44,682 nucleotides of DNA from a virus (Duplodnaviria; Caudoviricetes): the IMG/VR virus record IMGVR_UViG_3300030376_003536, positions 1 to 44,682 of that record, one strand, 5' to 3'. Positions 1,111-16,981 of this stretch are shown one piece after another; positions within the stretch are counted from its first letter, which is position 1, and each line of letters begins with the position of its first letter. The notes under the pieces were generated by a model. It was not told the origin of the DNA. It saw only the letters and a program-made list of their open reading frames with translations, and ran no database searches. The position numbers and the translations under genes are program-made.

Positions 1111-1142
1111 GAGGTGATACTAACGCCAATCAGTACCACCTC
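1111..1142 (-). promoter_or_regulatory. RNA hairpin upstream of an RBS
   Basis: 11 bp inverted repeat whose single mismatch is a G-U pair only on the minus strand. Confidence 0.55.
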
Positions 1143-1256
1143 TACTTTCACTTTTGTCAGCCATTTCCTTTTAACCACCATACAAAATAGAATCCTTTCA
1201 TTTTTAATTTAAGGTTTACAATTTATCAATGGTCACTAGGATATGCCTAGCTTTTC

Positions 1257-1604
1257 CTATCCTGCTATTTTTTTTAACAGGAGTAAGAAATCTTTGTAAC
1301 GTATAGTTACTAATGGTTCTCCTCTATCTTCCTTTATAATTTGTCCATAGACATCATCACAAGGTTTATATAGGTCACCAATTTTTTTACGAGCTTTAAC
1401 TTGAAACTTATACAAGTCTTCTTTGTTAATTGCACTACCAGAGTTAGGTGTTGTTATAGTCATATCTACCTCTTCGTGCCAACCAAGGGATCTTCCATCT
1501 GAACCCCACGCTCTGCGTGATTCAAAGCCAAATCCTTTAGCTAAATTAACACATTCTCGTTCTACTCGATTGCCTTTTTGTTTAGCTGCTCTACCTCCGC
1601 TCAT
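1257..1604 (-). CDS. Holliday junction resolvase, Hjc/PD-(D/E)XK type (start MSGGRAA)
   Basis: KQKGNRVERE helix, then VD and QVK, matching the archaeal-type/phage Hjc pattern. It lies downstream of the replication genes. Confidence 0.8.
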   Translation of the reverse strand: MSGGRAAKQKGNRVERECVNLAKGFGFESRRAWGSDGRSLGWHEEVDMTITTPNSGSAINKEDLYKFQVKARKKIGDLYKPCDDVYGQIIKEDRGEPLVTIRYKDFLLLLKKIAG

Positions 1605-1806
1605 TTGTATAGTCCTCATGTTCTTTATATGGATTATTCTCATTTAATGCGTTTTTACATATATGTGCAACTAAGATAGTCATTCTTGCAGATTCTTCTG
1701 AAGTATGTTCATCTTGCTCTCCTATGTAAAAGGATTTATAAGCATTGCTTACATGTATTTCAGTACCAGCTTTTTGTCTGGTTACATTCCATTCATATTT
1801 AGCCAT
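1591..1806 (-). CDS. Hypothetical protein
   Basis: GAGG RBS and TAATG coupling to the upstream gene. Confidence 0.65.
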   Translation of the reverse strand: MAKYEWNVTRQKAGTEIHVSNAYKSFYIGEQDEHTSEESARMTILVAHICKNALNENNPYKEHEDYTNERR

Positions 1807-1991
1807 TATTCCTCCTCCTCTGATTTTCTAATAACATCATCGTATTTAGGCATGCCTAGTAATTCAAATATAGCATCAAGTGCTTCTTGTCCATCGCTAG
1901 ACATACGTTGTCTATCTGTATGTTCTAAATCACTTAATAATGATATTAGCTGCTGCATCTTGGTTGATGCTAAATTAGGATATATTTTCAT
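1806..1991 (-). CDS. Hypothetical protein (probable start MKIYPNL)
   Basis: The start overlaps the stop of the upstream gene. Confidence 0.6.
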   Translation of the reverse strand: MKIYPNLASTKMQQLISLLSDLEHTDRQRMSSDGQEALDAIFELLGMPKYDDVIRKSEEEE

Positions 1992-2224
1992 AATAACCAC
2001 CTTTTTCTTATGCAGAAACTCCAAAGTAATTCAAACTTTGTAATTCCTACGTTGAAATGTATATGTTCACTTTCTTCTTGTGAGGCGTATCCTGCACCAA
2101 ACAAGAACAAATTAAACAATATTATTCTATTACTATGATAGGTATTGGTTCCGTCACTATCTACTCTTTTTGTTATTTTAACTATTGGTACACCTAATAT
2201 AGTGTAATGTATTGCATTTTTCAT
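1988..2224 (-). CDS. Hypothetical protein
   Basis: ORF in the operon following the primase hairpin. Confidence 0.6.
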   Translation of the reverse strand: MKNAIHYTILGVPIVKITKRVDSDGTNTYHSNRIILFNLFLFGAGYASQEESEHIHFNVGITKFELLWSFCIRKRWLL

Positions 2225-2243
2225 AGTACCCTTTTATTATATT

Positions 2244-2279
2244 ATAAATAGGGAAAGCAGTTATACTTCCCCTATTTAT
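2244..2279 (-). terminator. Hairpin after the primase-helicase gene (terminator or processing site)
   Basis: 16 bp stem with two G-U pairs on the minus strand and a 4 nt loop. Confidence 0.6.
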
Positions 2280-2285
2280 TATTGT

Positions 2286-4127
2286 TTATGCATATTTTGA
2301 AAAACTAAAAGTTTTCCAGTCAAATGCTGTGACTATTTCAAAGTCTGACTCGTCACGAGATGCAAGAGACTTAATTTTACGCTTCTTGCTTTGTTTACTA
2401 CCTGTAAACGCTATGATTTTGTCTGACTTTTGTGCTACATCACTAGCACCTTTTGCACTATATACATCTAGCTCTTCACCTTCTTTATGTCTGTAACTTG
2501 CACTTTTTGATAAATGATTTACTGCAAGTACAATAATGTCTTTTTCGACAGCAAGGTTTTTGAGAGCATTAATAATATATATTTGCTGTTGTAATGGTTC
2601 TTTCTTAGCAAACTTAGCTTGAACTACGTCTAATGTGTCTACAACAATAATCTTAACATCATATTTATCTACCATTTCAGCATATTGACTTATGTCTGGT
2701 GCTGAACTAGCATCGATAATATCTAGATGTGCAAGTTTGTTTACACCTTCTTCTATTTTAGTATTGTCACCAGCAATGAACATATTTTCTATTTGTTCTT
2801 TGCTTTGACTTAATACTATTTGATAGAATCGTCTAGCCATTAGTTTAGCTTGTACCTCTAAAGAGAAGAACAAGGTTGGTATATCAATGTTAGCAATAAT
2901 ATATTGCCAGAAAGCAGTCTTACCTAGTTTTGTGTCACCTGTTAGTACAACAAGCTCGCCACATTTAACTACATAGTCTTGTGTCATAAATGGAAATACA
3001 TCCTTTATGTTAAAAGACCTATTAGTAAAGTCTTCTGTGTAAGACTCTAGTAATATTTGTGCCATTTGACTAGAGTTAACTGCTGATACATTGTCATCTA
3101 AATCCTTGTATCTATATAGAGTACATTTGCTATCGCAATATCTTGAAAGCACTTCATCTCTACAACTATAATTGTATCCATCCTTAGAGGTAATACTTCT
3201 TAAAACAGTACTAACTTCTTCGTTAGGTAATGGTTGTGATAATGAATTGTTCCATGCTCTAGCCATACTCATAACTGCTTCTTTAGGAAATCCAAATTTA
3301 GTTATCCATAAACTAGCAAGACGTAACAAATGCTTATGTCTATAACCATGTACATATCCAGCATTATACATATGTTGTATGCATGTAATATGTTTTGTAG
3401 GTTTGTATTTTACATTAGTAAATATAGCTTTTGTTATTTTTTCGTTTTTCTCACTAGGTACATAGGGAACTAAATTAGGATAAAGTTCACTTACATTAGA
3501 AGGTAACTTACTATGTGCATACATTTTAGAATTGGTTTTAGCAAAGTCCAATACTTCATCGTATGCCCATTGATTAGTAGTTACTGCTACTAAAGGCAAG
3601 GGAACTTTATACCTATTAGATTTTCTGTTAAGAGAATAACTAGCACGAATAAGTCTAGTATTGTCGTAGATGTTGTCGATGTATTTAGCAAAATCACGTT
3701 GCATTGTAGCTTTAACTGATGCAGCAATACTGCTGCTTGATTTAAAACCATATATATCTGGTAAATGTATATGAAAACCTCTACCAGAAAACCATACGTT
3801 AATATGCTCATCTTTTACACCTAGTTTTCTCATGTCTTCAACAAGATTACCAACTTTTTCTATAGTTACGTCACCTTGTTTTTGACCTTCTAGGTCTACG
3901 TCAATATATAACTTATCTATTGCCTGCTTACCATTGTATCTTGCTACTGTGCCATGTTCAGCATGATGTTTTTTTATTTCATCAGGTTCATATAGAAACA
4001 TACTACGATATATTTCTCTACCTTTATTTTTGTTTAAAACATCTTTGAAATCAGCAAGTGTGCAAAATTTGTTACGATTTGCAACTGTGTTGATTGCATA
4101 TTCTATTAGATAAGTGTTATTTCCCAT
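2286..4127 (-). CDS. AEP (PrimPol-type) primase fused to a PriCT-like domain and a DnaB-like SF4 helicase
   Basis: AEP motifs LYIDVD, FSGRGFHIH and RLIRASYSLN. PriCT-like GYRHKHLLRLA...PLPNEEVSTVLRS. Cys cluster C-x8-C-x3-C. Walker A GDTKLGKT, FSLE, Walker B IIVVD and VNHL. Confidence 0.88.
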   Translation of the reverse strand: MGNNTYLIEYAINTVANRNKFCTLADFKDVLNKNKGREIYRSMFLYEPDEIKKHHAEHGTVARYNGKQAIDKLYIDVDLEGQKQGDVTIEKVGNLVEDMRKLGVKDEHINVWFSGRGFHIHLPDIYGFKSSSSIAASVKATMQRDFAKYIDNIYDNTRLIRASYSLNRKSNRYKVPLPLVAVTTNQWAYDEVLDFAKTNSKMYAHSKLPSNVSELYPNLVPYVPSEKNEKITKAIFTNVKYKPTKHITCIQHMYNAGYVHGYRHKHLLRLASLWITKFGFPKEAVMSMARAWNNSLSQPLPNEEVSTVLRSITSKDGYNYSCRDEVLSRYCDSKCTLYRYKDLDDNVSAVNSSQMAQILLESYTEDFTNRSFNIKDVFPFMTQDYVVKCGELVVLTGDTKLGKTAFWQYIIANIDIPTLFFSLEVQAKLMARRFYQIVLSQSKEQIENMFIAGDNTKIEEGVNKLAHLDIIDASSAPDISQYAEMVDKYDVKIIVVDTLDVVQAKFAKKEPLQQQIYIINALKNLAVEKDIIVLAVNHLSKSASYRHKEGEELDVYSAKGASDVAQKSDKIIAFTGSKQSKKRKIKSLASRDESDFEIVTAFDWKTFSFSKYA

Positions 4128-4378
4128 GTGTGTTCTGCGCTCTTTGTTTTGACTCGTTTAATCTCTTTAATATCAAGACGTTGCATAAGCTCTGGAGTAC
4201 GTTTAAATTCACGCCAATATCTTCCTGCAGTACCTGCATTGAACATTTTGTCATGATATACTAAACCATACTGAGTAAAGCTATTCTCAACCTCATGGCT
4301 GGCAACTCGAAAGTTACCAGCATCCATGCGAGATTTAAGCCAGTTTATCAATATATGAATAACTGTTGGCTTACCCAT
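4106..4378 (-). CDS. Hypothetical protein, possibly winged-helix DNA-binding
   Basis: Small basic ORF between the SSB-like and primase genes, containing a TAGRYWREFKR helix. Confidence 0.55.
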   Translation of the reverse strand: MGKPTVIHILINWLKSRMDAGNFRVASHEVENSFTQYGLVYHDKMFNAGTAGRYWREFKRTPELMQRLDIKEIKRVKTKSAEHTWEITLI

Positions 4379-4908
4379 TACAAATCCATATCATCACTTA
4401 CATCAGAACTATCTGCTGATGGTTCTTGAGTAGGTTCTTCATAGATTTTAATCCAACCATCACGAACTTGCTTGTCAAATTCTGCTTTATGAGCATCTTG
4501 ACCAGCAGCTGCTGACATAACAATGTCAAAGTCGTTCCAGAATGGTTTACCATTATCTCTAAGCCTATCACTAGGATATGTAATGTAAGAGAACTCCTTA
4601 CCTACTGCTTGGTCAAACCATGCATCAGGTATTACCATGTCTCCATTGAGGTCTTTAGTGTTAACACCTACAGCCTCAAAGAACTTAGCAACTTTGAATG
4701 CACTACCCCAAGGGTTCTTAGGATTGTCTTTCTTAAAGTTACCAGAAATAGTAAATGTGTAGTCATAAGACTCACCATCTTTACTTTGTTTCTCTATTAC
4801 AACATCTAAACATACGTCATTGTTCCATGACATATATGATTTAGGTGGTTCGCTGTACCTTGCAGATACAGATTTAGCTTTAACAACTTGTCTATAACTT
4901 CCAGCCAT
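4378..4908 (-). CDS. Putative single-stranded DNA-binding protein
   Basis: Beta-rich body and acidic C-tail (DSSDVSDDMDL), directly after ERF. Confidence 0.6.
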   Translation of the reverse strand: MAGSYRQVVKAKSVSARYSEPPKSYMSWNNDVCLDVVIEKQSKDGESYDYTFTISGNFKKDNPKNPWGSAFKVAKFFEAVGVNTKDLNGDMVIPDAWFDQAVGKEFSYITYPSDRLRDNGKPFWNDFDIVMSAAAGQDAHKAEFDKQVRDGWIKIYEEPTQEPSADSSDVSDDMDL

Positions 4909-5531
4909 TATTTACTCTCCTTTGTTTTTTTGATTGCGTTTTGTAGTTTAACTATAGCTTTAGCAGCTCTTTCTTCAGTAGGGTTTTCGTCAATTAGTTT
5001 TCTAACCTTTCCTGATGTACCAGAACCTTTTAAAGCTGGATCTCGTGATAATCTATCTAACTTGATATTTTGCTCTACAGTTATGTGACCTTTTGTAGGT
5101 TCCTTACCATTAAGCAATGTCTGTTTACGATTATCCATGCTATCAGAATCTTCTGTATCATCAATAGCAAATAAACCATTACAAGCGTACTTACGAGCAT
5201 ACGTTGATGCTGTGCCAGTCATCTGTGGGTCATCCATACCTTTCTTACCAACTGATTCTCTAGCAAATGCATCTACAGATATTGCATCGCTTCCATCAGA
5301 TAGTTCAACTGTTGCTTTAATGTAAGTACCATTGTTTTTGTCTACTAGTTCATCTGAAATTGTAAGAACGCAAGCAGTTTTATCTAGCAGCGGCTTTACA
5401 TTTTCAAAGATGTCGTCTAGTGTTCTGTAGTTGAATTTAGCAAAGTTATTTACATTAGACTTTTTTACTTTCAGCTCATGCTGTATGTAATTTAGTTTTT
5501 CTGTAATAGTTGCTGTTTTAAAGTCACTCAT
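4908..5531 (-). CDS. erf: ERF-family single-strand annealing recombinase
   Basis: KSNVNNFAKFNYRTLDDIFENVKPLL and QMTGTASTYARKYACNGLFAIDD are ERF signature motifs. Confidence 0.9.
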   Translation of the reverse strand: MSDFKTATITEKLNYIQHELKVKKSNVNNFAKFNYRTLDDIFENVKPLLDKTACVLTISDELVDKNNGTYIKATVELSDGSDAISVDAFARESVGKKGMDDPQMTGTASTYARKYACNGLFAIDDTEDSDSMDNRKQTLLNGKEPTKGHITVEQNIKLDRLSRDPALKGSGTSGKVRKLIDENPTEERAAKAIVKLQNAIKKTKESK

Positions 5532-5541
5532 TAATTACCTC

Positions 5542-6540
5542 CTAGTTTAAATTAATGTTTTGTTGTTTATTATACTTTACCCATTTCTGTGCTATCTTAA
5601 ATGCTTTTACATTATAATCATAACCAGCACCAAACTGCGTAGTTTTTACCCAGTCTTTATATTGCTTGTCATGTGTATAATATTGTGTAACAGCATTGTA
5701 TGCATCCCAGAGTGTTTCACCTTTATTACCTATACCATTGTAAAAGTTATCCTTTATTTTATTATATACAGGTAACGCAGTATTGCGTACAAATATATCC
5801 ATGTTTGGTTTGGATTCTTTGTGCCTATCTTTTAAGAATGGTATAACTGTTTCAAGATATAAATCTAATGAGTCTTCTCCTATTTCTATCTCACCAAAGT
5901 TATTCATGTCATCAATAGCAGCCTTAAAGTCTCCGTTAGACCTTGATATAATATTTGTAAGGTTCTTAACTCTGTCTTTTATGCTACTTGTATGTTTAAG
6001 TGAGTAATTCCATTTAGATTCTCTTGATAATGCTAGTTCAATAGTATTGTAACATACTACACGAACACCTGTAGGTCTGAAAACACTACCAGCTGAACCA
6101 TCGTGTGATGTATATAATAATACATATTGTTCTATTATATCATCATTACCAACTGTGTATTTTTCTGGTGATTTAGCAAGTATCCATACTTTTCTACCAT
6201 CTTGTACACTACCTGCTGTTTCTAGTTTGAAACCCATATCAAGTAATGGTTCAAATGGTGCAAACGCTTCACGATTTTGTAATACACCATATCTTTCAGA
6301 TACACCTTTACCTAGTATTTGACCAGTATCTGCTCTGTATGTGCAATATCCACCAGTAGGCATAGCAGAGGTGTGTATATCTCTGTCAAAATAGTATGTT
6401 TTACGTTTGTTTACTTCCCAATTAAGCTTTGCATAGTGCAATGCTTCTTCTATTGTTGGAGCGTCTTCTACTCTAGTTCCTTGTTCGTGCCAAGGCGTAT
6501 CTCCAACGTACATCATGTTATCTATAAATGCTGGACTCAT
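5542..6540 (-). CDS. DUF932 / TIGR03299-like phage-plasmid protein
   Basis: PWH..G, VSERYGVLQNREAF, ETAGSVQDGRKVWILA, SHDGS, VRVVCYNT, HT and TLWDAYNAVT motifs. Confidence 0.85.
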   Translation of the reverse strand: MSPAFIDNMMYVGDTPWHEQGTRVEDAPTIEEALHYAKLNWEVNKRKTYYFDRDIHTSAMPTGGYCTYRADTGQILGKGVSERYGVLQNREAFAPFEPLLDMGFKLETAGSVQDGRKVWILAKSPEKYTVGNDDIIEQYVLLYTSHDGSAGSVFRPTGVRVVCYNTIELALSRESKWNYSLKHTSSIKDRVKNLTNIISRSNGDFKAAIDDMNNFGEIEIGEDSLDLYLETVIPFLKDRHKESKPNMDIFVRNTALPVYNKIKDNFYNGIGNKGETLWDAYNAVTQYYTHDKQYKDWVKTTQFGAGYDYNVKAFKIAQKWVKYNKQQNINLN

Positions 6541-6668
6541 ATGTCCTCCCTTTCTAATGATAAGTTTGTGTGACAGTCTAAACAGATTAAATTCTCATAT
6601 ACATTGTTTTCAACTTCTGCAGGAATATATTCTTTGTTTTTATGTTCACAGTTTTTTTGTTTCTCCAT
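6537..6668 (-). CDS. Small putative zinc-binding protein (43 aa; CEH...CLDC), not in the ORF track
   Basis: Translated by hand. ATGA overlap with the DUF932 start. Confidence 0.5.
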   Translation of the reverse strand: MEKQKNCEHKNKEYIPAEVENNVYENLICLDCHTNLSLEREDI

Positions 6669-6843
6669 AGGTTTGTTTCCCTTTGATTTTAGCTTTTGCT
6701 TTTAAATGAAAAAGCTCTGTTTGTAGTTTGTCAGCTTGTGATGATGTTAACTCTTGTAATCCAAGTATTAATGTATCTACTTCGTCTAGTGTTAACAATA
6801 TTCCAAACTGCAATCTACCTTTATCATTTAGTTTTAGATACAT
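6646..6843 (-). CDS. Hypothetical protein
   Basis: ORF in a packed operon. Confidence 0.55.
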   Translation of the reverse strand: MYLKLNDKGRLQFGILLTLDEVDTLILGLQELTSSQADKLQTELFHLKAKAKIKGKQTYGETKKL

Positions 6844-6973
6844 TGTCTAAAGTTCCCATGTGATAATCAATAGCTCTTGATAGCTCTTTAGCTTTAGTTA
6901 TATACAATGGTTTAGCTGTACCAAGTTGGTCAAGAAACTCTTGTATTTCTTTTAGTAACTCTTTAGTTGTCAT
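6824..6973 (-). CDS. Small hypothetical protein (49 aa, MTTKELLKEIQ...), not in the ORF track
   Basis: AGGAG RBS upstream, and it fills the operon gap. Confidence 0.55.
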   Translation of the reverse strand: MTTKELLKEIQEFLDQLGTAKPLYITKAKELSRAIDYHMGTLDNVSKTK

Positions 6974-7262
6974 TTTCTTTCTCCTTTTGTTGTTCTGTAA
7001 TATGTTGTTTTATGATTACTTCTGTAACACCAAATCTATCCATACCTTCAAGACAATCTCTCAATTGTGTTTCAGTCTGGTTATTGTGTGTTATTGTTGT
7101 TGCACCATCTACAAGTATTTCAATGTTGTAACGCTGCTTGCTGCTTACTACATTTCCTACTTTACTTGTAGCTGTGCTAACAAATCTCAACATGTTGTTA
7201 AGACCAAATGCAAGATAACCTAACGTCTTGCTTAGTTGACCAATTAATGTCATTTTATTCAT
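6963..7262 (-). CDS. Hypothetical protein
   Basis: GGAG RBS, with a start overlapping the upstream stop. Confidence 0.7.
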   Translation of the reverse strand: MNKMTLIGQLSKTLGYLAFGLNNMLRFVSTATSKVGNVVSSKQRYNIEILVDGATTITHNNQTETQLRDCLEGMDRFGVTEVIIKQHITEQQKEKENDN

Positions 7263-7552
7263 TTATGTTCTCCTCCCTCAAGCCATCTATCGATATGATT
7301 ATTCTCTAGATCCCTTAGTTTATTTTGTACGTTGATTGACTTGCATTCATCTACATTCAATTCGTAACGTATAGGAGCTGGCTGCATTTGCATCCTCATT
7401 GTCTTGCCTGTTTCATATGCATCTTCAAAGCATTGTGGGCAATAGACAACATCATGTCCTTTAGTTTCGTATTCTTCTGTTTGTGAATTTAGTTCAACGT
7501 ATGTTGTTTCAACCATTTCTGGTTTAATATCTGGATGTATCATACATCTCAT
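7259..7552 (-). CDS. Putative zinc-binding protein
   Basis: CMIH...CPQC and a GGAGG RBS. Confidence 0.7.
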   Translation of the reverse strand: MRCMIHPDIKPEMVETTYVELNSQTEEYETKGHDVVYCPQCFEDAYETGKTMRMQMQPAPIRYELNVDECKSINVQNKLRDLENNHIDRWLEGGEHK

Positions 7553-7576
7553 AATTACCTCCGTTTATTTATATAT

Positions 7577-7642
7577 TAGAGATAGAAAAGACCGTTTATC
7601 ACAGGAAGATAACATATCAAAGATTGGTCTCTTCTACCTCTA
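7577..7642 (-). promoter_or_regulatory. 17 bp RNA stem with a 32 nt loop (processing site or sRNA candidate)
   Basis: tagaggtagaagagacc pairs with ggtcttttctatctcta using two G-U pairs on the minus strand. The loop contains ATCTTTGA. Confidence 0.65.
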
Positions 7643-7675
7643 TTAGAATTTAATTCATTTCTAAGAGAATTACTA

Positions 7676-7816
7676 TTAGTTTTTCTCTTCTTGTTCCTGT
7701 ATTATTTTGCCATCTTCAAACATCCAAACACCTAATTTTTGGAATCGTTCAAAGTCGTCAGGATTACCTCCATGGCAAGCACACATAAATGCAAAATCTG
7801 TTTCTGTTATTACCAT
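7676..7816 (-). CDS. Small hypothetical protein (46 aa, MVITETDFAF...), not in the ORF track
   Basis: Translated by hand. The start overlaps the end of the upstream gene. Confidence 0.5.
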   Translation of the reverse strand: MVITETDFAFMCACHGGNPDDFERFQKLGVWMFEDGKIIQEQEEKN

Positions 7817-8169
7817 TTTGTTCTCATGTCCTTTCCTTTATACTTTTTAATTAGTTTTATTAGATTCTTTGGTTTTCTCCAAAGTACTCTTTCAGTAAGA
7901 TGTGGAGTAGCATGTCTTACACCATATTGTTCTCCGTAGTATTTTTCTACTACATCAATAAGTTGTTCTGGGTAATCTTTTACTCTTGCACCTAGTTTTT
8001 TTAATAAACCTAAATGCATTTCAACTAAAATTACACCTTCGTCATTTCTATGTCCACGACATACAACTCCTAAATCAATCCAGTTATAAGCAGAACGATT
8101 GTAATCTGCTTGGTCTAGTTTCATAAGAGCTGATGTTCTTACTTGTTGTTTTACTATTAAGCGTTGCAT
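7810..8169 (-). CDS. Hypothetical protein
   Basis: AGGAG RBS. Confidence 0.75.
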   Translation of the reverse strand: MQRLIVKQQVRTSALMKLDQADYNRSAYNWIDLGVVCRGHRNDEGVILVEMHLGLLKKLGARVKDYPEQLIDVVEKYYGEQYGVRHATPHLTERVLWRKPKNLIKLIKKYKGKDMRTKW

Positions 8170-8182
8170 TGTTACTCCTATT

Positions 8183-8524
8183 CTATGTTGCTGCTAAACC
8201 CCAAAAGAAGAACGCTTTAATATTTCGCTTTCCTTTGTAACCTTCTTTTTCCTTTATCCGTTTTAATATAGCACCTTTTATTTCAATGCAATTCCATGCA
8301 TTAAATTTTGTGCCATCCATAGTATTGTCTACGAATTTCCAGAATTTTTTAGTATCATATCTAGGTGCGTCTTTTCTAATGAAAAACCCACTTGATGTAG
8401 ATATTGTACCATTATATCCATCATGTCCATAATCGTATTCTGCTTCTTCTACTAACTCATTGTATGCTTCCTCTGCATTTTTGTATCTACCTAATGCAAA
8501 GTCTGTTGAATCAAATGCTCCCAT
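8183..8524 (-). CDS. Hypothetical phage protein
   Basis: AAGGAG RBS, with YGHDGYNGTIST and FFFWGLAA motifs. Confidence 0.8.
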   Translation of the reverse strand: MGAFDSTDFALGRYKNAEEAYNELVEEAEYDYGHDGYNGTISTSSGFFIRKDAPRYDTKKFWKFVDNTMDGTKFNAWNCIEIKGAILKRIKEKEGYKGKRNIKAFFFWGLAAT

Positions 8525-8558
8525 TATTATTCTCCTTGTTTTTGTTTGTTTAATTTTT

Positions 8559-9479
8559 AGAGGCTATACACAACCCTAATAAGCTTCCCCTACTGACACT
8601 TGTTGCAAACTCGTGGTAGGTTTATCGCTTACCTTGTACTCAACTATCATTTCATATATAGTATCTTCCAATGGTGGCTAATGTCATGACGTTAACGAAT
8701 GTTAATGTGCATAACCTCTTATAATTTACCAGACTCTCCCATAACACGTGACGTGGATAGTGTGGGTATCAACAGCTGTCTAACACAGAGTCTGGCTTTT
8801 TACAGTAAATATAAACCCCTTCTACTTATCAACTTACCTGTCAAAAATGATAATCCAATATGAAAGGAGCGTGGTAAGGATTTGTTTCAAAGGGGTTTTA
8901 ATATTTTATGATGTGTGGTTTCTCGGTCTATTTTCACTCACATAGTTTTTTTATACTAGACTCATCATTATTTCAACGTAAATAAAATTTGCTCTGTTTT
9001 GGTGTCAAGGTACAGAGCAAACCTTGTTTGAGTAACAGTATGTAAGTCTTACAACTTACCATTGTTCTCGTTGTTATACGCTGTCTGACTGATTAGTTAA
9101 TTACGCTAATCCAAGATGATAATTACGGGTTCTATGACTCTGCTGTTTCATCTTGACTTATGCAGATTGTGGTACCAAAACAGGCATGAACACTGGTAAT
9201 TATGATTGCTTGCGACAGTTTGATATTGCTGGGATGAAGGATTCGCATAGTACTATACTACTACCTTGCAGAGCCAGAATATATCACATATAAAAAAGAC
9301 AGTTAGATCCGTTTAATTTCGTAGCTTGTTCTTGGTACGCTTTGCTGTAGGTTATTGTGGCTGTGAGCTTTTTGGCGAACTATAATATTGAGCGAAGCAC
9401 ATCTTTTATAATAAATGTGGTGCCTTTTTACAGACACCACATACTCTGGACAATTTAATGTGGAGTGAACATTTCCACA
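8559..9479 (-). ncRNA. Candidate structured ncRNA or array of hairpin-bounded small RNAs
   Basis: About 920 bp with no ORF of 60 aa or more, holding at least nine consecutive non-overlapping inverted repeats. Most stem mismatches resolve as G-U on the minus strand. Confidence 0.6.
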
Positions 9480-9505
9480 ACCTTTACAGGCTTATCTACT
9501 CTTTA

Positions 9506-9847
9506 TTATGAATCAGTACCAACTACCATATAGCGTAGGGTATTATTCTTGCATTCTCTTTCAGTCTTCAGATTTAACATGAACTTATCTTTAAGTAACT
9601 CATTAAGTGTAGTAGAAAGAACCTCTTCTTTGTCTTCTACATCTTTGATGAACATGTTAACTATGTATCCGTCATCTATCGAATCAGCAATTTCATTTTT
9701 ACTGATTGGGTTATCAGTCCAAGTTCCGTCTACCTGTTTGCTACGATTAAACCATACAGGATTATTAGCTCGCTTTGAATCACGTGCTACTACTAAAGAG
9801 TCTATTTCTTTAGCATATTCTTTTAGTATTGATGTTATTGATTTCAT
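9506..9847 (-). CDS. Hypothetical early protein (start MKSITSI)
   Basis: AGGAG RBS before the ATG at 9847. Confidence 0.75.
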   Translation of the reverse strand: MKSITSILKEYAKEIDSLVVARDSKRANNPVWFNRSKQVDGTWTDNPISKNEIADSIDDGYIVNMFIKDVEDKEEVLSTTLNELLKDKFMLNLKTERECKNNTLRYMVVGTDS

Positions 9848-9909
9848 TCTGTTATCTCCTAACTTTGTATTTAACTCATACATTGTGTATAAGCTATAAA
9901 TAAAAAATA

Positions 9910-10067
9910 CAGTATATGAGGATAATAGATAGGGATTGCGATTAGCAATACATTTTTAAAGTAAAGGGTGCGTAAAGCACACATTATAATATAAATATAC
10001 TGGGTGAGGCTACTAGCATATTAGGGAGCTAGTAGACTCACACAAATAGAGGAGAGCGAAGCTCTCC
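9910..10067 (-). ncRNA. Second cluster of three intergenic hairpins
   Basis: Inverted repeats at 9910-9917/9995-10002, 10005-10017/10028-10040 and 10051-10067. Confidence 0.45.
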
Positions 10068-10071
10068 GAGA

Positions 10072-10263
10072 CTAAGATTGCATCTTATTGAATTTATCTA
10101 ATTCTTTAAGTTCTTTCTCAAGTTCTTTAACCTTGAACTCAAGACCTGTAACTTTGAATTTTAATTCCCAGATTGCATCTGTTTTCTTCAGTATTGACTT
10201 AGTTTGAATACGAGACAATTTACGATATTGTCTTACTTTTCTTTCTAGTTCTTCTTTATTCAT
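10072..10263 (-). CDS. Small coiled-coil early protein
   Basis: GGAG RBS and heptad-like LEFKVKELEKELKEL. Confidence 0.7.
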   Translation of the reverse strand: MNKEELERKVRQYRKLSRIQTKSILKKTDAIWELKFKVTGLEFKVKELEKELKELDKFNKMQS

Positions 10264-10300
10264 TATTTACACTCCGTTGTTAATTAAGAAATAAATTTTA

Positions 10301-10337
10301 CCCCCTCAACTCCATTAGGAGAAATTTTACGAGGGGG
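10301..10337 (-). terminator. Intergenic hairpin
   Basis: CCCCCTC/GAGGGGG stem with an inner CTCC/GGAG stem. Confidence 0.5.
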
Positions 10338-10345
10338 ATTTTGTA

Positions 10346-10519
10346 TTACTGAGTAAACTCTACAGATTGAATAGCACTATTCTGTGCAAATCTATGAGTT
10401 GCCTCGTCACGAGCCAGTTCTTTAGTACTGAACTGGTTTCTATTCACTAACTCAACGGAGCCTGAGTTCAAATCTTGAAATTTGTAATATAAGCTCCGTT
10501 CACTTATGCATACTATCAT
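10346..10519 (-). CDS. Small early protein (start MIVCISE)
   Basis: GGAGG lies 5 nt before the ATG at 10519. Confidence 0.65.
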   Translation of the reverse strand: MIVCISERSLYYKFQDLNSGSVELVNRNQFSTKELARDEATHRFAQNSAIQSVEFTQ

Positions 10520-10537
10520 GATTACCTCCATGTTTAT

Positions 10538-10548
10538 TCAAAGATAAA
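10538..10548 (-). promoter_or_regulatory. Conserved early motif TTTATCTTTGA
   Basis: Identical 11-mer at 10538, 10916 and 11423, each upstream of an RBS. Confidence 0.6.
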
Positions 10549-10565
10549 AAAGATTATAGGATATT

Positions 10566-10589
10566 GAGGGGCATTTAAAAACACCCCTC
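10566..10589 (-). terminator. Hairpin after the gene at 10595-10888
   Basis: 10 bp stem with two G-U pairs on the minus strand. Confidence 0.6.
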
Positions 10590-10594
10590 TAATA

Positions 10595-10888
10595 TTACTT
10601 AGCAAAGTACTTGAAAGGGAACGATTGAAAAAATTCATCGAACTCTTTACAGTCTAACTTTGCTTGAGCCAGCATATAAGGATACACATGTCTCTCATAT
10701 TGGTCATACCATGTACCTGTAACAGGGTCATGCTCACCATGAGGATGTGTTTCCATACGCTTTACATCAAACTCAAGAGACTCTTTCATTTGATATACTG
10801 CTTTTATTTTATCTACAAGTATATACAACATATACAATAGATTGAGACTTACAAAGCCTAAAAATACTATGACAATTAACTCTAACAT
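10595..10888 (-). CDS. Early membrane-anchored protein
   Basis: N-terminal hydrophobic helix and GGAGG RBS. Confidence 0.75.
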   Translation of the reverse strand: MLELIVIVFLGFVSLNLLYMLYILVDKIKAVYQMKESLEFDVKRMETHPHGEHDPVTGTWYDQYERHVYPYMLAQAKLDCKEFDEFFQSFPFKYFAK

Positions 10889-10915
10889 TGATTGTTCCTC
10901 CGTTGTTCTAGATTA

Positions 10916-10926
10916 TCAAAGATAAA
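10916..10926 (-). promoter_or_regulatory. Conserved early motif TTTATCTTTGA
   Basis: 27 nt upstream of the ATG at 10888. Confidence 0.6.
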
Positions 10927-10952
10927 AAAGGGAGATGTACAAGACACCTCCC
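10924..10952 (-). terminator. Intrinsic terminator
   Basis: gggaggtgt-cttgt-acatctccc followed by U6. Confidence 0.75.
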
Positions 10953-10966
10953 AATTTCACTACGTG

Positions 10967-11155
10967 TTACGAATCACAAGATGGACAACCATCATGATGA
11001 CCATGCAACTCCTCGGAACACATTTCACGCTTACCAATTTTGATTGCTGTCAAAACGCCAGCAGATGCATAAGTGTAAGCTACCCTTGCACCAGCACCAG
11101 CAAGAACTGATGTGCCTACAAGGAAATACCCAGTATTTTGAAGTAATTTATTCAT
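10967..11155 (-). CDS. Small early membrane protein with a Cys/His-rich C-terminus
   Basis: Hydrophobic N-terminal half, C...HGHH.GCPSC and an AGGAG RBS. Confidence 0.7.
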   Translation of the reverse strand: MNKLLQNTGYFLVGTSVLAGAGARVAYTYASAGVLTAIKIGKREMCSEELHGHHDGCPSCDS

Positions 11156-11183
11156 TTGATTAATCTCCTAAGTTATGTGAATA

Positions 11184-11194
11184 TCATAAATAAA
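11184..11194 (-). promoter_or_regulatory. Variant early motif TTTATTTATGA
   Basis: 9/11 match to the motif, 28 nt upstream of the ATG at 11155. Confidence 0.45.
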
Positions 11195-11223
11195 AAAAGA
11201 GCCAAGCAAACGCCTGACTCTTT
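11192..11223 (-). terminator. Intrinsic terminator
   Basis: aaagagtcaggc-gttt-gcttggctcttt with a U-run and two G-U pairs. Confidence 0.75.
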
Positions 11224-11227
11224 AATT

Positions 11228-11395
11228 TCATTTCTTGATTACACCTTTAACTTGATTATATGTATCTTTGATAAACTCCTTATCTTCTGGTAAAGTATCT
11301 ACAACATACTTACCAGCTTTATACGAAACATACCCTACTGTTGCTACTGCTCCAAGAGCAATATACAGCGTGTCTTTTACTAAAGTTTTAAACAT
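11228..11395 (-). CDS. First early gene: 55 aa membrane peptide (MFKTLVKDTLYIALGAVATVGYVSYKAG...), not in the ORF track
   Basis: TAAGGAG RBS and one hydrophobic helix, followed by a terminator. Confidence 0.7.
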   Translation of the reverse strand: MFKTLVKDTLYIALGAVATVGYVSYKAGKYVVDTLPEDKEFIKDTYNQVKGVIKK

Positions 11396-11422
11396 AAGAA
11401 CTCCTTATTTTAGTGAACTAAT

Positions 11423-11433
11423 TCAAAGATAAA
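11423..11433 (-). promoter_or_regulatory. Conserved early motif TTTATCTTTGA at the head of the leftward arm
   Basis: 27 nt upstream of the ATG at 11395, with no terminator hairpin in front of it. Confidence 0.6.
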
Positions 11434-11469
11434 GAACCTTTGAAACATATGAGGAAGTTTTCAACTGAA

Positions 11470-11760
11470 GTCTAACGACCTCACAAATGAGTACAAGTAC
11501 TCTCTCTATGTGTAAGGATTATATATACATAGCTGGGGGCATGTACATATACAGGGCAGGTACAAGTACCTCTACGACTGCGGCATTGCTGAAGGCAATG
11601 GGGGTCGTGAGCTGTACGTTGGGTGGGTATGATAACGAGTTGATAAAGAACGAGTTGCGGCAGCAACACCTTAACTCAATCTTTGAACTCAACCAAATCA
11701 ACCCCCTGCACCCCAACTAACGTGGGGGTAGGTAACGTAATACACCTCCCACTCCCAGTC
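11470..11760. other. GC-richer divergence region with short repeats (candidate packaging terminus or origin)
   Basis: GTACAAGTAC x2, AACGAGTTG x2, AACTCAA x2, G/C runs and a hairpin at 11575-11608, between the two divergent arms. Confidence 0.4.
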
Positions 11761-11784
11761 TTGTTCTTGTTCTGTAAGAGTATT

Positions 11785-11813
11785 GGAACATAATACTTAA
11801 ATTGAATGTTGAA
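11785..11813 (+). promoter_or_regulatory. Candidate ECF-sigma-like late promoter GGAAC-N18-GTTGAA
   Basis: Same boxes and spacing as 14702-14730, at the start of the late arm. Confidence 0.55.
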
Positions 11814-11846
11814 ATAACATAAAGTTTTACTTTAAATTAAAAAGAC

Positions 11847-12047
11847 ATGACTAGTAAAAAACGAGATTACGAAGTATTTAACATGATTACAGGTACATGG
11901 GAGAAATCTACCATGACTGAAGCTGACTATCAGAAGCTTATGGATAGGATGGACACCGATGCAGAAGAGCTAGAAGCTGAATTTAAGATTATATCCAAGA
12001 TTATAGAACAAAAGCAAGGATATAAGCCTGATGAGAGTATGGATTAA
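11847..12047 (+). CDS. Hypothetical protein
   Basis: First ORF of the plus arm. Confidence 0.65.
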   Translation: MTSKKRDYEVFNMITGTWEKSTMTEADYQKLMDRMDTDAEELEAEFKIISKIIEQKQGYKPDESMD

Positions 12048-12049
12048 AG

Positions 12050-12110
12050 TATATAATATATTATATAAGTTACTTATATAGTAACAGTTACTAATTAGTA
12101 ACAGTTACTA
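12050..12110. repeat. Tandem palindrome array
   Basis: TATATAATATATTATATA (12050-12067), TATATAAGTTACTTATATA (12062-12080) and TAGTAACAGTTACTA x2 (12079-12093, 12096-12110). Confidence 0.85.
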
Positions 12111-12117
12111 GTAAAAC

Positions 12118-12897
12118 ATGATAAAAATAAAACGAAGAATTAATAGAAAAACATCAGAATACTCTATTTATACGAAAAAAGAGGCTGATAATAAAAATAT
12201 TAAATATTTATACTGGAAAGAGTGCAATACTGGAGATTGGGGATTAACAGACGATGATTATGTTAGTGAATGTGTGTCTAAAAAGGATTACACAGACAAG
12301 AATGGCAATACGAAGACATTTATTAAGCTAACATGTGGAGTAGGATGGGGCAGTTCGTTTTCTAAAATAAAATTTGAATTAAATCACGCATATGAGTGTT
12401 ATTCTAAGACTAATCCTACAAAAGATTGGAAAGAACAAGAGATAAACACTACAAGAGCAAAGAATACAATTAATACCTATGCTAATATGCTATTATCTGG
12501 AGATAAAGTGGATTTTGATAAACTAGGACAGGTATATAGACCTGACCAAAAGATCCCTGCGGCAACAGTAAGAAGATTTTTAAAACAAAAGGTATCTAAA
12601 GACATGGTAGAACAAAAATTAAAAGAATTACTCTCTGAAAAGAGTATTAACAAAGAATTTGCATTAGATAACCTGCTTAGAGCATTGCATATGGCAGAAG
12701 GTAAGGGTGATGTAAACAATTTTCTAAAAGCAAACGATGCAATAATGGATTTACTAGAGATGAAACCTAGTAAGAAAGTATTAACAGATACAGTTCAGAT
12801 AGATGTTACTAAACAGATAGCTGATACTATAGCAACGGAGGAGAATAAACTAACATTACAAAGAAAAGAGGAAACAAATGAGCAACCTGACTCCTGA
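12118..12897 (+). CDS. terS: Putative terminase small subunit
   Basis: Upstream of TerL. The C-terminal helical pattern (ALHMAEGKGDVNNFLKANDAIMDLL) resembles TerS oligomerisation helices. Confidence 0.55.
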   Translation: MIKIKRRINRKTSEYSIYTKKEADNKNIKYLYWKECNTGDWGLTDDDYVSECVSKKDYTDKNGNTKTFIKLTCGVGWGSSFSKIKFELNHAYECYSKTNPTKDWKEQEINTTRAKNTINTYANMLLSGDKVDFDKLGQVYRPDQKIPAATVRRFLKQKVSKDMVEQKLKELLSEKSINKEFALDNLLRALHMAEGKGDVNNFLKANDAIMDLLEMKPSKKVLTDTVQIDVTKQIADTIATEENKLTLQRKEETNEQPDS

Positions 12898-13078
12898 TGA
12901 AGATTATGAGCATGTTAATGCTAATATCATGGAAGACCAGCTAGAAGTAGCTATTAGAGCTTTACATGTTATTGCGGCTATGCCTTCATCTGACCCTGAG
13001 TTTCTTTCTTCCGTAGCAATTGATGCTTTGAGAGAAATGGAAACATATGGAATGATGTGGCATGATGATATATATTAA
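12878..13078 (+). CDS. Small acidic hypothetical protein
   Basis: GAGG RBS in an overlapping operon. Confidence 0.65.
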   Translation: MSNLTPDEDYEHVNANIMEDQLEVAIRALHVIAAMPSSDPEFLSSVAIDALREMETYGMMWHDDIY

Positions 13079-13239
13079 TGTTTTCATTCTGTCCTATTAT
13101 AGATAGAACTTGTGCATTTGCTACAGATTGTAATAACCATAAACATTGTGGTATAAAAACAGGTAGCTATGAAGAAACAAAAATACATAATATAACAAAA
13201 TGCCCTAAACCAAAGAAAAAGAAACGTGGCAGAAGATAA
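13078..13239 (+). CDS. Small Cys-rich basic protein (53 aa, MFSFCPIIDRTC...KKKKRGRR), not in the ORF track
   Basis: TAATG coupling and five Cys. It fills the gap to TerL. Confidence 0.6.
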   Translation: MFSFCPIIDRTCAFATDCNNHKHCGIKTGSYEETKIHNITKCPKPKKKKRGRR

Positions 13240-14698
13240 AAAATTAGTTTTTAATAAATTAAAGAAGAACATGATAATGTTTGGTAAGATTATAATGCCA
13301 AATATGTTTACAGTTCCTTCACCAGATTTTCATTATAAGATTGCTGATGCTTTACTTGATAATGCCTCCAAGCAAGTAAACATCATTGCCCCTCGTGGTC
13401 ATGCTAAATCCTCCATTGTGGGTGGTGTCTACCCTTTATACCACCTTATGCATCACGAGGGGAGTAAATTAATAGTCTTAGTATCCAGAACTCAAGACCA
13501 TGCTATAAAACTATTAGGAACAATAAAAGATGTTCTTGAGTATAGCGAAACATTTAGAGCTATCTATGGATACTGGGGTCAACACAATGCTAAACAATGG
13601 GCAAAATCTGAAGTAGAACTAAAAGATGGTTCTATGATAATATGTAAAGGTACAGGTCAACAGCTTAGAGGTATTAAAGTAGGGAGTCAAAGACCTACAT
13701 TAATTATTGTAGATGACCCAGAAGATGAGAATAATACTAAGACTGCTGAAGCTATGGAGCAAAACCTTAGATGGTTATTGCAATCAGCAGTTCCTTCATT
13801 AGACCCTACTAAAGGTAGAATAATAGTTATTGGTACTCCGCAGCATCAACGCTGCTTAGTAGAAATATTAAAACAAATGAAGGGATGGGTAAATATGCAT
13901 TTTAGTCCAGATATGGACAAAGAAGTAGCTTTATGGGAAGAATGGCAACCTATAAAAAAATTAAAACAAAAAAAAGAAGAACTAGAGTCTATAGCAAGAG
14001 TAAGTGTATTCTACAGAGAATATCTATGTCAAATAGTTGGAGATGAAGACCAGCTATTTAAAGAAGAGTATATACAATATCATAATTATAAATTAGAAAT
14101 AGATAGTGATAACCAACATTATTTAAAATCTAAAAATGAAAAAATACCAGTAAACGTCTTTATGGGGGTTGACCCTGCATCCTCAATACGCAAAACAGCT
14201 GACTATAGTGTAATTATGCCTATAGCAGTTGATAACAAAAACAACAGGTATGTTCTAGAATACTACCGCAAAAGAGCAACCCCTATGAATTTAGCAGAAA
14301 GCATCATAGAGTATTTTAAACTATACAAACCTGTAAAAGTACGTATTGAGTCTGTAGGCTATCAAGAGATGTTACGAGAATATTTAAGACAAAGAACAGA
14401 AGAGGAGAATCTATTTATTAGTGGATTAGAAATAAAAGAAGCTCCAAGAACTAGTAAATCATCTAGACTTGAAACAATGGAACCTTACTTTGCACAAAAG
14501 AAAGTATATATTAAAAAAGAACAACTATCGTTAAAAGATGAGTTATTATTATATCCTAGAGGTAAGCATGATGATTTATTAGATGGATTATACTATGCTA
14601 TGAAAAAATGTTATACTCCAAGCCATGTTGTAGAAAACAAAGAAAAACAATCCAGCAGCAAGTCTGCTGCAAACAATTATGATTGGAAGACATCTTAA
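13226..14698 (+). CDS. terL: Terminase large subunit
   Basis: Walker A APRGHAKS, Walker B IIVDD, coupling motif GTP, and nuclease motifs GVDPA and HDDLLD. Confidence 0.95.
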   Translation: MAEDKKLVFNKLKKNMIMFGKIIMPNMFTVPSPDFHYKIADALLDNASKQVNIIAPRGHAKSSIVGGVYPLYHLMHHEGSKLIVLVSRTQDHAIKLLGTIKDVLEYSETFRAIYGYWGQHNAKQWAKSEVELKDGSMIICKGTGQQLRGIKVGSQRPTLIIVDDPEDENNTKTAEAMEQNLRWLLQSAVPSLDPTKGRIIVIGTPQHQRCLVEILKQMKGWVNMHFSPDMDKEVALWEEWQPIKKLKQKKEELESIARVSVFYREYLCQIVGDEDQLFKEEYIQYHNYKLEIDSDNQHYLKSKNEKIPVNVFMGVDPASSIRKTADYSVIMPIAVDNKNNRYVLEYYRKRATPMNLAESIIEYFKLYKPVKVRIESVGYQEMLREYLRQRTEEENLFISGLEIKEAPRTSKSSRLETMEPYFAQKKVYIKKEQLSLKDELLLYPRGKHDDLLDGLYYAMKKCYTPSHVVENKEKQSSSKSAANNYDWKTS

Positions 14699-14701
14699 TT
14701 T

Positions 14702-14730
14702 GGAACTTTTTATATATTAATCTAGTTTAA
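14702..14730 (+). promoter_or_regulatory. Candidate ECF-sigma-like late promoter GGAAC-N18-GTTTAA
   Basis: Intergenic, just before the portal gene, and matches 11785-11813. Confidence 0.55.
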
Positions 14731-14749
14731 CTAACTAAAACCTAACTCT

Positions 14750-16981
14750 ATGCGTAAAAATAACTCTAGTAAAGACCCAGAAGTACAATTTACCCACGAC
14801 CTATTAAAAGAATACAGCTCATCCAGAGAAAACTGGGCAAAACAAGCTGTAGAGGATAATGAGTTTCGTAATGGTAAGCAATGGACAAAAGAACAAGCTG
14901 ACACATTACGAAATAAGGCTCAAGAACCAATTGTAGTAAATGTAATATTTTCTGCAGTAGAGCAAGCAAAAGCTATGCTCGCTGCTAATAAGCCACGATT
15001 TCAGTCAACTGCCAGAGAAACCAGCGATACAGAAGTTGGTCGTTTATTTTCTGACTTGATGTCCTACGTCTGGGATAATTCCAATGGCAACGTAGAACTC
15101 AAGCAAGCTATTGATGACTACTATGTTAAAGGCATGGGAGTTATGATGGCATATACAGACCCAGATAAAGACTTTGGTCGTGGTGAAGTTTGTCTAAAGT
15201 CAATAGACCCTCTTGAAGTATATTTTGACCCAAGCAGTAAAGATCCCTTTGCTAGAGACTGTGGTCATATTATTGTAGCAAAATTGATGAGTCAAAATCA
15301 ATTGATACAACACTTTCCAGAGTTTGAAGAAGAGATACGAAATGTTCAAGAAACAAACCATATAAATATTCCTTCTGAAAGTAGGCATTCTCTAATGTCT
15401 GAAGATGTTACTCTTAAAAGTAGAACAGCAGGAGAAGAGCTATCTGGAGATAGAGAGCTAGAAATGTTTACAAGGTATACAAAGATACGTATGCCTTATT
15501 ATAAGATTTATGACCCTTACGCTAATTCTGAGCAAGTATTAAATATCGACCAATTTGAAGAGTATAAAAAAGAAGAAGTAGTAATATTGACAGATAATAA
15601 TGGTGATACTCAAATATTTACTGAAGAAAAGCAAGTAAGAGGTTATGTTCAGTTACATGAACAGATGGGTGATACATTTCATATGATGCAAGACCCGCAA
15701 ACAGGGCAACCAATGCCTATGGCAGGGAAAGAGCATGAAGGTTCTATACCTAACTCAACTAGTTATATAGACTTAGCTACAAAAGAACATTTAATAGAAG
15801 ACAAAAGAATTTTAGTAAACGAAATAGAAGTTACAAATATAGAGCAATGTGTTTCTGTAGGTGACCATATGCTGTATAAAGCAATCCTACCTATAGAAGA
15901 ATATCCAATTGTACCATTTATGAATGGTTTTAATCGTAATCCTTATCCTATGTCTGATGTAAGACTTGTAAAAGGATTGCAAGAGTACATAAATAAAATA
16001 CGTTCATTAATTATTGCACATGCATCTAGTAGTACAAACGTAAAATTATTAATCCCTCGTGGTGCAGTAAACAAACAGCAGGTAGAACAAGATTGGGGTA
16101 GAGCAGGAACAGCGGTCATAGAGTTTGACCCAGAGTTAGGTAGTCCTATAGTAGCATCCCCTATACCTTTGCCTAATGAATTATATAAAAATGAGGCAGA
16201 TGCAAAAGCTGATATTGAAAGAATCCTTGGTATATACGCTTTAATGCAGGGCGACATGGGTGCTGCACCACAAACTTTTAAAGGAACAGTTGCTTTAGAT
16301 GAGTATGGTCAAAGACGTATTAAATCTAAAAGAGATGATATAGAAGAAGGTGTAAATCAATTAGCTAAAGTTGTTGTAGGATTAATACAACAAGTATACA
16401 CCGATGAAAAAGTTATAAGAATAATGCAACCTAATAATAAACCTAATGAAGTTGTAGTTAATAGTCCTCTTTATGATGATATAGGAAATGTTGTAGGTAA
16501 GCAAAGTGATATTACAGTTGGTAAGTATGATGTAATAGTATTGTCTGGTTCTACTCTACCAAGTAATCGTTGGGGAAGATTTGAGTACTACATGCAGTTG
16601 TATCAAGCTGGTTTAATTGACCAAATAGAGCTATTAAAACAAACTGATGTTGCAGATATGGAAGGTGTCCTTGAAAGAAATGGACAAATGAAACAATTGC
16701 AAGGTCAATTGCAAATGCAAAATGAAGAAATTAAAAAGCTTAAAGGTGATTTACAAACTGCACAGAGAGAATCATTACATGATAGAAAACGTGTAGAAGT
16801 AAAAGAATTTGAAAAGAAACTTGCTAAAGCAGAAGCAAAGGTTGAGATGGCACAAAAATTGTATCAATCTAGACTTTCTGATGAATTAAAGAATGCAAGA
16901 AATGATTTATCTAACGCTGCTGAAGATAATCCACAGCGTGAGATGAACGAAACTATACTAAGTATAAACGAAGAGAATTGA
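14750..16981 (+). CDS. Portal protein (P22 gp1-like)
   Basis: Follows TerL, with G.QW, DP....DP, YPIVPF and Q..INK motifs and a long C-terminal coiled coil. Confidence 0.9.
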   Translation: MRKNNSSKDPEVQFTHDLLKEYSSSRENWAKQAVEDNEFRNGKQWTKEQADTLRNKAQEPIVVNVIFSAVEQAKAMLAANKPRFQSTARETSDTEVGRLFSDLMSYVWDNSNGNVELKQAIDDYYVKGMGVMMAYTDPDKDFGRGEVCLKSIDPLEVYFDPSSKDPFARDCGHIIVAKLMSQNQLIQHFPEFEEEIRNVQETNHINIPSESRHSLMSEDVTLKSRTAGEELSGDRELEMFTRYTKIRMPYYKIYDPYANSEQVLNIDQFEEYKKEEVVILTDNNGDTQIFTEEKQVRGYVQLHEQMGDTFHMMQDPQTGQPMPMAGKEHEGSIPNSTSYIDLATKEHLIEDKRILVNEIEVTNIEQCVSVGDHMLYKAILPIEEYPIVPFMNGFNRNPYPMSDVRLVKGLQEYINKIRSLIIAHASSSTNVKLLIPRGAVNKQQVEQDWGRAGTAVIEFDPELGSPIVASPIPLPNELYKNEADAKADIERILGIYALMQGDMGAAPQTFKGTVALDEYGQRRIKSKRDDIEEGVNQLAKVVVGLIQQVYTDEKVIRIMQPNNKPNEVVVNSPLYDDIGNVVGKQSDITVGKYDVIVLSGSTLPSNRWGRFEYYMQLYQAGLIDQIELLKQTDVADMEGVLERNGQMKQLQGQLQMQNEEIKKLKGDLQTAQRESLHDRKRVEVKEFEKKLAKAEAKVEMAQKLYQSRLSDELKNARNDLSNAAEDNPQREMNETILSINEEN

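Follow-up and report, generated by a model that had tools for sequence, protein, structure and literature searches.

The window, by which is meant the whole 44,682-nucleotide stretch of DNA analysed here, is a virus record (44.7 kb) that is rated complete. Its plus-strand genes, which run from 12118, include those for terminase, portal, an SU10-type capsid protein, tail fibres, and endolysin, and its minus-strand genes encode a primase-helicase, Erf and RusA-like proteins, and many small open reading frames (ORFs) without assigned function. The gene layout and a 2877-aa ORF at 34549-43182 together suggest a podovirus-like phage. This ORF has no Pfam match and one weak PHROG match. An inverted repeat at 12059-12110, where the minus-strand gene block gives way to the plus-strand block, is kept in close relatives and is a candidate origin or terminus signal. 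DNA matches to cultured phages are at chance level (best E 0.3), the best relatives of the capsid and terminase proteins share less than 30% identity, and no cultured relative was found among them. GTDB genomes contain no match to the pattern of unit H, described below, or to the alignment of the neighbouring 113-aa protein, and protein look-ups pointed to no host organism. The sequencing runs that best cover the locus are mostly marine.

A gap of 981 bases (8525-9505) lies inside the early operon between two minus-strand genes. The upstream gene (9506-9883) encodes a 125-aa protein of no known family with relatives at the 67-93% level in five loci, and the downstream gene (8183-8524) encodes a conserved 113-aa protein, also of no known family. 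The ORFs within the gap measure 22-54 aa. The gap is occupied by a row of about ten unrelated structured units on the minus strand, which starts with a terminator-like hairpin and has a ribosome-binding site at its 3′ end. Hairpins also come after other early genes of this phage.

Reading along the minus strand, unit A (9459-9500) consists of two small hairpins and is without counterpart in the closest relatives. It is followed by T (9415-9442), an intrinsic-terminator-like hairpin whose slot is filled by other hairpins in relatives, and by M1 (9294-9407), which is weakly closed, G-poor, and mostly unpaired, contains conserved sequence islands, and is a candidate antisense seed or promoter. 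M2 (9221-9286) is a stem-loop with a 10-nt palindrome at 9247-9256, and M3 (9081-9218) is a multi-segment hairpin with a side hairpin and a palindrome at 9170-9177. Unit P (9030-9069) is a bulged stem-loop and a divergent member of its family, and unit H (8988-9026) is a predicted compact H-type pseudoknot of 6 + 7 bp. Unit X (8908-8968) has a closing stem around a predicted pseudoknot, J (8813-8898) is a long bulged stem whose loop contains a pyrimidine tract complementary to the Shine-Dalgarno sequence, and K (8729-8795) is a two-hairpin junction with an 8-nt palindrome at 8772-8779. The row ends with Z (8559-8719), which has a closing stem of 14 bp, an inner hairpin, and a pair of 8-nt palindromes (8683-8697) that do not vary.

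The initial annotation had described nine inverted-repeat stems in this region, and all nine are present. Its proposal that the mismatches favour minus-strand RNA also stands: of the seven non-Watson-Crick positions in these stems, six read as G-U on the minus strand and as A.C on the plus strand, one is a plain mismatch, and the plus strand has no G-U. Stems that do not overlap form a chain that reaches a score of 174 on the minus strand, where 30 dinucleotide shuffles give at most 136 and 80 on average; the plus-strand chain scores 116 against a shuffle mean of 99. By folding energy, the region as a whole is only modestly better than shuffles (z -3.3 plus, -2.2 minus; 20 shuffles), and the minus strand is not favoured. 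Single units on the minus strand vary widely by this measure, with z from -6.3 (T) to +1.8 (M1). The region is not a CRISPR or tandem repeat, as had been noted, and contains only short two- or three-copy chance repeats without regular spacing.

Several of the stems require a different reading from the one first given to them. The stem 9135-9143/9268-9276 is present and can form in this lineage, but covariation favours the rival split into M2 and M3. It is not a conserved closure because the closing stem of M3 covaries and M3 persists when M2 is replaced. The stem 9294-9301/9400-9407 is likewise present but weak, and its interior folds worse than shuffles; as unit closures, both stems are doubtful. 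The hairpin at 8988-9021 is only half of the H pseudoknot, which extends to 9026, and P is a further unit beyond the nine stems. The description of each module as a closing stem plus a variable loop is an oversimplification: the interiors are conserved, tertiary-looking folds with covariation. The flanks of the closing stems are 78-84% A/T, compared to 59% inside. A motif resembling RNase E sites is not enriched after the stems (14/25 vs. 11.1 expected, p 0.14).

Relatives were collected through the flanking proteins (5 loci by the 125-aa gene and 21 by the 113-aa gene) and through pattern scans, in which H gave 31 viral and 44 metagenome loci, M3 gave 15 loci (3 by chance), X gave 9 (1 by chance), and W, a unit that is not in the window, gave 12. 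The resulting 117 gap segments yielded 62 non-redundant arrays, with arrays at least 97% identical to a longer one removed. Four loci with pattern matches inside protein genes (L109, L110, L114, L138) and three with poorly delimited gaps (L008, L098, L135) were removed before counting.

Gain and loss of modules as units is supported by the five closest relatives, which exhibit insertion, deletion, and replacement of whole units with the array retained. Three of the relatives examined (L001, L099, L103) carry a 63-nt W insert at 8968/8969, the position where the window retains an orphan 5′ arm of the W closing stem (8969-8978), which is likely a deletion scar, and unrelated hairpins stand in place of M2 in L103, L116, and L040. 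In 13 of 20 more distant loci, only the stretch 8980-9044 is matched, within other non-coding rows. Copies of H share 85-96% identity across lineages in which the 259-aa protein next to the array is only 15-19% identical. Across the 62 arrays, the window units recur in changing company. H (47 arrays, the most widespread unit found), M3 (12), and X (10) served as search baits, which inflates their counts, and Z (13) was never a bait, so arrays with Z alone are undersampled. J occurs in five arrays, K in three (including L051 and L099), and A in two, one of which is the unrelated array L122. X stands alone in L137, in a 144-base gap between two genes and just before a gene, and L132 contains the Z core with a different closing stem and without M3. 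In 12 of the 15 relatives that were aligned, a member of the P family stands before H. M3 lies upstream and Z downstream in all 12 M3 arrays, 201-551 nt apart, and this pairing, together with the half-stem left after W loss, indicates that not every unit moves freely or is lost cleanly. An automatic parse of the 62 arrays returned 178 stem-closed units in 57 clusters, 25 of which occur in at least two arrays; because the parse splits some families and misses weakly closed units, the number of families is put at about twenty.

Other features of the related arrays lie outside the window units. In six arrays (L002, L005, L011, L023, L045, L125), the same small hairpins occur inside the variable loops of different carrier units, a nested form of modularity. 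A stem-closed family in L119, L122, L126, and L128 has large purine-rich loops that end in a shared 10-nt motif, which by eye is complementary to a conserved island of M1. Units in L007, L034, L043, and L047 and in L027, L028, and L092 contain internal loops that we take to be like the bulged-G (loop E) and kink-turn motifs, and one such unit has 11 bases in common with the 5S rRNA of E. coli (p 0.01, in a set of 250 tests).

The reading of the stems as selected RNA structure is supported in relatives, where compensatory changes back the folds of four window units. Covariation in M3, X, W, and Z lies above all or nearly all of 500 shuffles and is weaker in H, with counts that ignore the relatedness of the sequences. 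In M3, 98.4% of cells are paired and 9 of 38 pairs have changed on both sides (10 sequences); X is 98.5% paired, with 4 of 17 pairs changed on both sides (8 sequences), and Z has 5 of 38 predicted pairs so changed (9 sequences). H is 95.1% paired over 19 sequences, two rows of which are off by one column in the alignment. K does not vary among its three copies and hence offers nothing for covariation.

Pseudoknots are predicted in three window units. In H, the hairpin loop is predicted to pair with six bases before the stem, and M3 may possibly hold a pseudoknot whose pairing letters are invariant. Within the window, the minus strand has this H-type fold at a single place; the 62 arrays together have it 48 times, mostly as H itself, and three shuffles not at all. 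W is a fully paired predicted pseudoknot with a loopless 8-nt palindrome that is kept in five versions, with all four palindrome pairs changed on both sides. M3 has a palindrome at one site in 12/12 arrays, with three different cores, the inner four bases of which can alternatively pair intramolecularly. Such persistence of a palindrome through sequence changes suggests that two families, W and M3, form homodimers. Covarying palindromes in the OLE and GOLLD RNAs are read as intermolecular pairing in a published study (PMC12286853), and the palindromes of their kissing loops covary as they do in the array units. Palindromes are not enriched overall in the arrays.

One of the alternatives in the initial annotation was a large undescribed RNA, and Rfam 15 covariance models, including GOLLD, ROOL, tmRNA, ribozymes, riboswitches, and ToxI, return no window match at the gathering threshold. 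The best Rfam E value within 8400-10400 is 1.1, and 20 related loci give three weak matches. ARAGORN finds no tRNA or tmRNA in the window. H matches positions 268-304 of beta_tmRNA at 13.2 bits against a gathering threshold of 84 (E 0.0088 in a 91-base search chosen post hoc), and the H model has no match in E. coli ssrA. Mimicry of 5S rRNA, 23S helix 69, tRNA anticodon arms, and tmRNA was considered and is unsupported by comparison with E. coli rrnB and ssrA and one phage tRNA. Likeness tests against E. coli RNAs gave 4 of 250 at p≤0.03, which is the chance level, and E. coli may not represent the host. The unit motifs have no match in files 3, 5, and 6 of Fremin and Kyrpides 2023, and no contig identifier appears in file 4; some units may be among the 10,006 candidate structured RNAs of PMC10690425. 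A literature search, mostly of papers open without subscription, found no description of shuffled arrays of this kind. The window units make up an uncatalogued, conserved cluster of structured RNA units, a variant of the phage RNA-gene cluster.

Related arrays place known RNA genes beside the shared units. A tRNA-Met is present in L122 and L125, both of which share W, and a true GOLLD (156.2 bits vs. gathering 150) is present in L126, which also shares W. The L126 GOLLD (1580-1984, minus) lies downstream of a tRNA-like element and is followed by W and then by another stem-closed unit. The flanking genes of L122, L125, and L126 are related to genes from the early region in this phage group. The presence of tRNA and GOLLD beside shared units indicates that known RNA genes and uncatalogued units belong to the same kind of row.

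Six RNA sequencing runs with small array shares (0.09-0.18) were all examined. In five of them, from four studies, contigs 95-99% identical to the window fall within 8876-9285 and all cover the M3 core (9132-9211); the sixth run gave scattered contigs, one over 8491-8644. Neighbouring units are bridged (M2-M3, M3-P-H, and H-W-X-J), and one contig includes the 63-nt W insert. These contigs carry no strand, end, or level information and may include DNA carry-over, and since they cross unit borders, processing at the linkers is something that we infer. Runs X15, X17, X19, and X20 contain nothing else in 1-20000 except one 40-base partial match, and X16 has scattered contigs that also lie over genes. 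Lack of cover outside the array is not counted as evidence because the runs were chosen by the array and their source is possibly a mosaic relative. An X19 contig (161 nt, depth 39) fits 9131-9272, its loose ends presumably being sequencing adapter; in X15, one contig ends at 9269. These ends fit the 9135/9276 stem and are a weak hint of it, possibly from one amplified fragment.

Between the two alternatives originally offered, one large non-coding RNA and a polycistronic cassette of separate RNAs, the relatives support the cassette and disfavour the single large RNA because units occur without each other, as X does in L137. The units are very probably separate RNA genes in one transcript, and if they are, the odds that most of them act as decoys are slightly better than even. 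The preferred reading, to which we assign a probability of roughly 45%, is that the array is processed into separate small RNAs that act in trans as putative folded decoys for host proteins. Minus-strand transcription of the array is suggested by its position in the operon's direction and by the polarity of its G-U pairs, and the early transcript would read through, or restart at, the array. Host nucleases would cut the A/U-rich linkers, closing stems would protect the released pieces, and units could pair as homodimers through their palindromes. Early in infection, the folded units would then sequester the host proteins they bind, defence nucleases for instance. Most conserved letters of H, X, W, M3, and Z are paired or in internal loops, and since folds, junctions, and palindromes are conserved but the distal stems are variable, shape-based protein binding is favoured over base-pairing. 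Phage anti-defence islands are well established, and by analogy the fast turnover of units in this early accessory region fits an arms race.

It is unlikely that the array chiefly encodes antisense small RNAs that would use their unpaired stretches to bind host mRNAs, at ribosome-binding sites for instance, and so stop translation in the host. The paired state of the conserved letters and the variable distal stems count against such a role, and antisense matches to the phage's own transcripts are at chance (12-mers: 0 early and 5 late vs. 4.2). J, however, retains its Shine-Dalgarno-complementary tract in a loop, and M1 is mostly unpaired with conserved islands. Both units look more like antisense RNAs, and the cargo of the array is probably mixed.

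About equally unlikely is a set of cis elements on the early mRNA (terminators, processing sites, stabilisers, or leaders) that shuffle like the PeSL cassettes of T4-type phages. The array sits within the early operon with a terminator-like hairpin first and a ribosome-binding site last, other early genes are also followed by hairpins, and X in L137 directly precedes a gene. On the other hand, ten different units stand ahead of one gene, the downstream genes change, compensatory substitutions maintain the pseudoknots and palindromes, and the same rows contain tRNA and GOLLD genes. Nor is there a shared promoter-hairpin repeat: the region 7500-12200 has 13 promoter-like sites vs. 19.4 expected, and the array holds one terminator-like site.

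The survival of M3 upstream and Z downstream in every M3 array would suit a single large RNA whose end domains (M1-M3 and Z) stay fixed and build a multimer or cage, with exchangeable cargo in the linker. The palindromes, the contigs that cross unit borders, and the tRNAs found in GOLLD linkers (PMC12286853) are in line with this architecture. It is nonetheless rather improbable, as most arrays are without M3 and Z, the Z core occurs without M3 in L132, and helices between M3 and Z are at chance (4/6 bp, none covarying, null 0-5). Catalytic or ligand-binding RNAs, namely self-cleaving ribozymes that would divide the array or aptamers that would sequester signal molecules of the host, are no more probable than this single large RNA. 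Compact pseudoknots with invariant junction letters and a weak SAM-II match of unit A in L122 (20.4 bits vs. gathering 36, E 0.047) speak for them, but none of the ribozyme and riboswitch families scores at threshold. To the eye, X and another family are like the hammerhead core only in part, which we take to count against the ribozyme reading. That the region acts as DNA (an origin or protein-binding palindromes) or encodes short peptides is highly improbable, for although it contains palindromes and 17 ORFs of at least 20 aa overlap the gap, its G-U polarity (including one-sided changes in Z and M3), its pseudoknot covariation, and the frame-breaking insertions and deletions throughout the relatives' alignment all oppose it.

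Known phage counter-defence relies mostly on proteins, and its RNA examples are few and single. RNA anti-CRISPRs are RNA mimics of CRISPR repeats that are used against host defence, and the T4 stable RNAs C and D are small non-tRNA RNAs processed from the phage tRNA cluster. T4 RNAs C and D are one or two fixed species and RNA anti-CRISPRs mimic CRISPR repeats, whereas the arrays described here draw on a pool of about twenty families. A close likeness in arrangement is to phage tRNA clusters with GOLLD or ROOL (PMC12286853), in which non-coding RNA genes are likewise placed in a row. The window differs from them in having no tRNA, GOLLD, or ROOL, and in its members, which measure 30-160 nt, are uncatalogued, and occur in many orders.

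The pseudo-ToxI of phage PhiTE is a precedent for a phage RNA decoy (PMC3475682). Type III antitoxins such as ToxI, CptI, and TenpI are described in PMC8860590 and PMC12283969 as H-type pseudoknots with A-rich flanks. Unit H resembles them in its H-type pseudoknot, A-rich single-stranded flanks, phage origin, and absence of an adjacent toxin gene from the genes seen. It differs in occurring once per array without tandem repeats, in having no Rfam ToxI match, and in stems longer than the 4 + 4 bp of ToxI, and the other window units are unrelated folds. Cellulophaga phage phi14:2 also has long intergenic early stretches, which give abundant and stable RNAs with no function assigned (bioRxiv 10.1101/2020.03.07.982082). 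It belongs to a different phage group and is likened here by description only, and the accessible portion of that report gives no modular structure or shuffling. PeSLs of T4-type phages are repeated promoter-terminator elements that shuffle protein genes (PMC2839356). They share with the array the modular shuffling in a variable early region and the involvement of stem-loops, but here it is the non-repeated RNA folds themselves that shuffle, without the repeated sigma-70 promoter and terminator that this source describes.

A broader proposal, which we put forward tentatively, is that these marine phages trade an accessory pool with at least 20 families of small structured RNAs. Many of the families would be pseudoknots or homodimers, and each unit would be a putative decoy with its own target among the defence and RNA-binding proteins of the host. 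The tRNA and GOLLD genes would be two members of this pool, which would constitute an RNA counterpart of protein anti-defence islands. If true, a tradeable RNA pool beside tRNA and GOLLD would give GOLLD-type RNAs of unknown function a context, and would offer about twenty new small RNA families for synthesis, probing, and pull-down at low cost. Should the decoy role fail, the covarying palindromes and pseudoknots are still direct targets for structural work on RNA-only dimers.

The early region contains further non-coding stretches of its own. A second gap at 9885-10070 has three hairpins, one of them terminator-like. Two promoter-like sites on the minus strand (11547-11518 and 10941-10912) share an identical non-consensus first hexamer and an 18-base spacer, and the latter sits inside a terminator-like hairpin. 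The G+C-richer non-coding stretch at 11550-11800 lies ahead of the early promoter and is likely near the genome end. Among related loci, L017 (2255-2327) and L057 (1129-1201) carry a tRNA-Met in a second, more upstream early non-coding stretch. Non-coding stretches of 400-500 nt also occur inside two arrays, at about 905-1415 in L122, directly after the tRNA-Met, and at about 1100-1480 in the oriented array of L121; neither has an Rfam match, and both are candidate new large RNAs.
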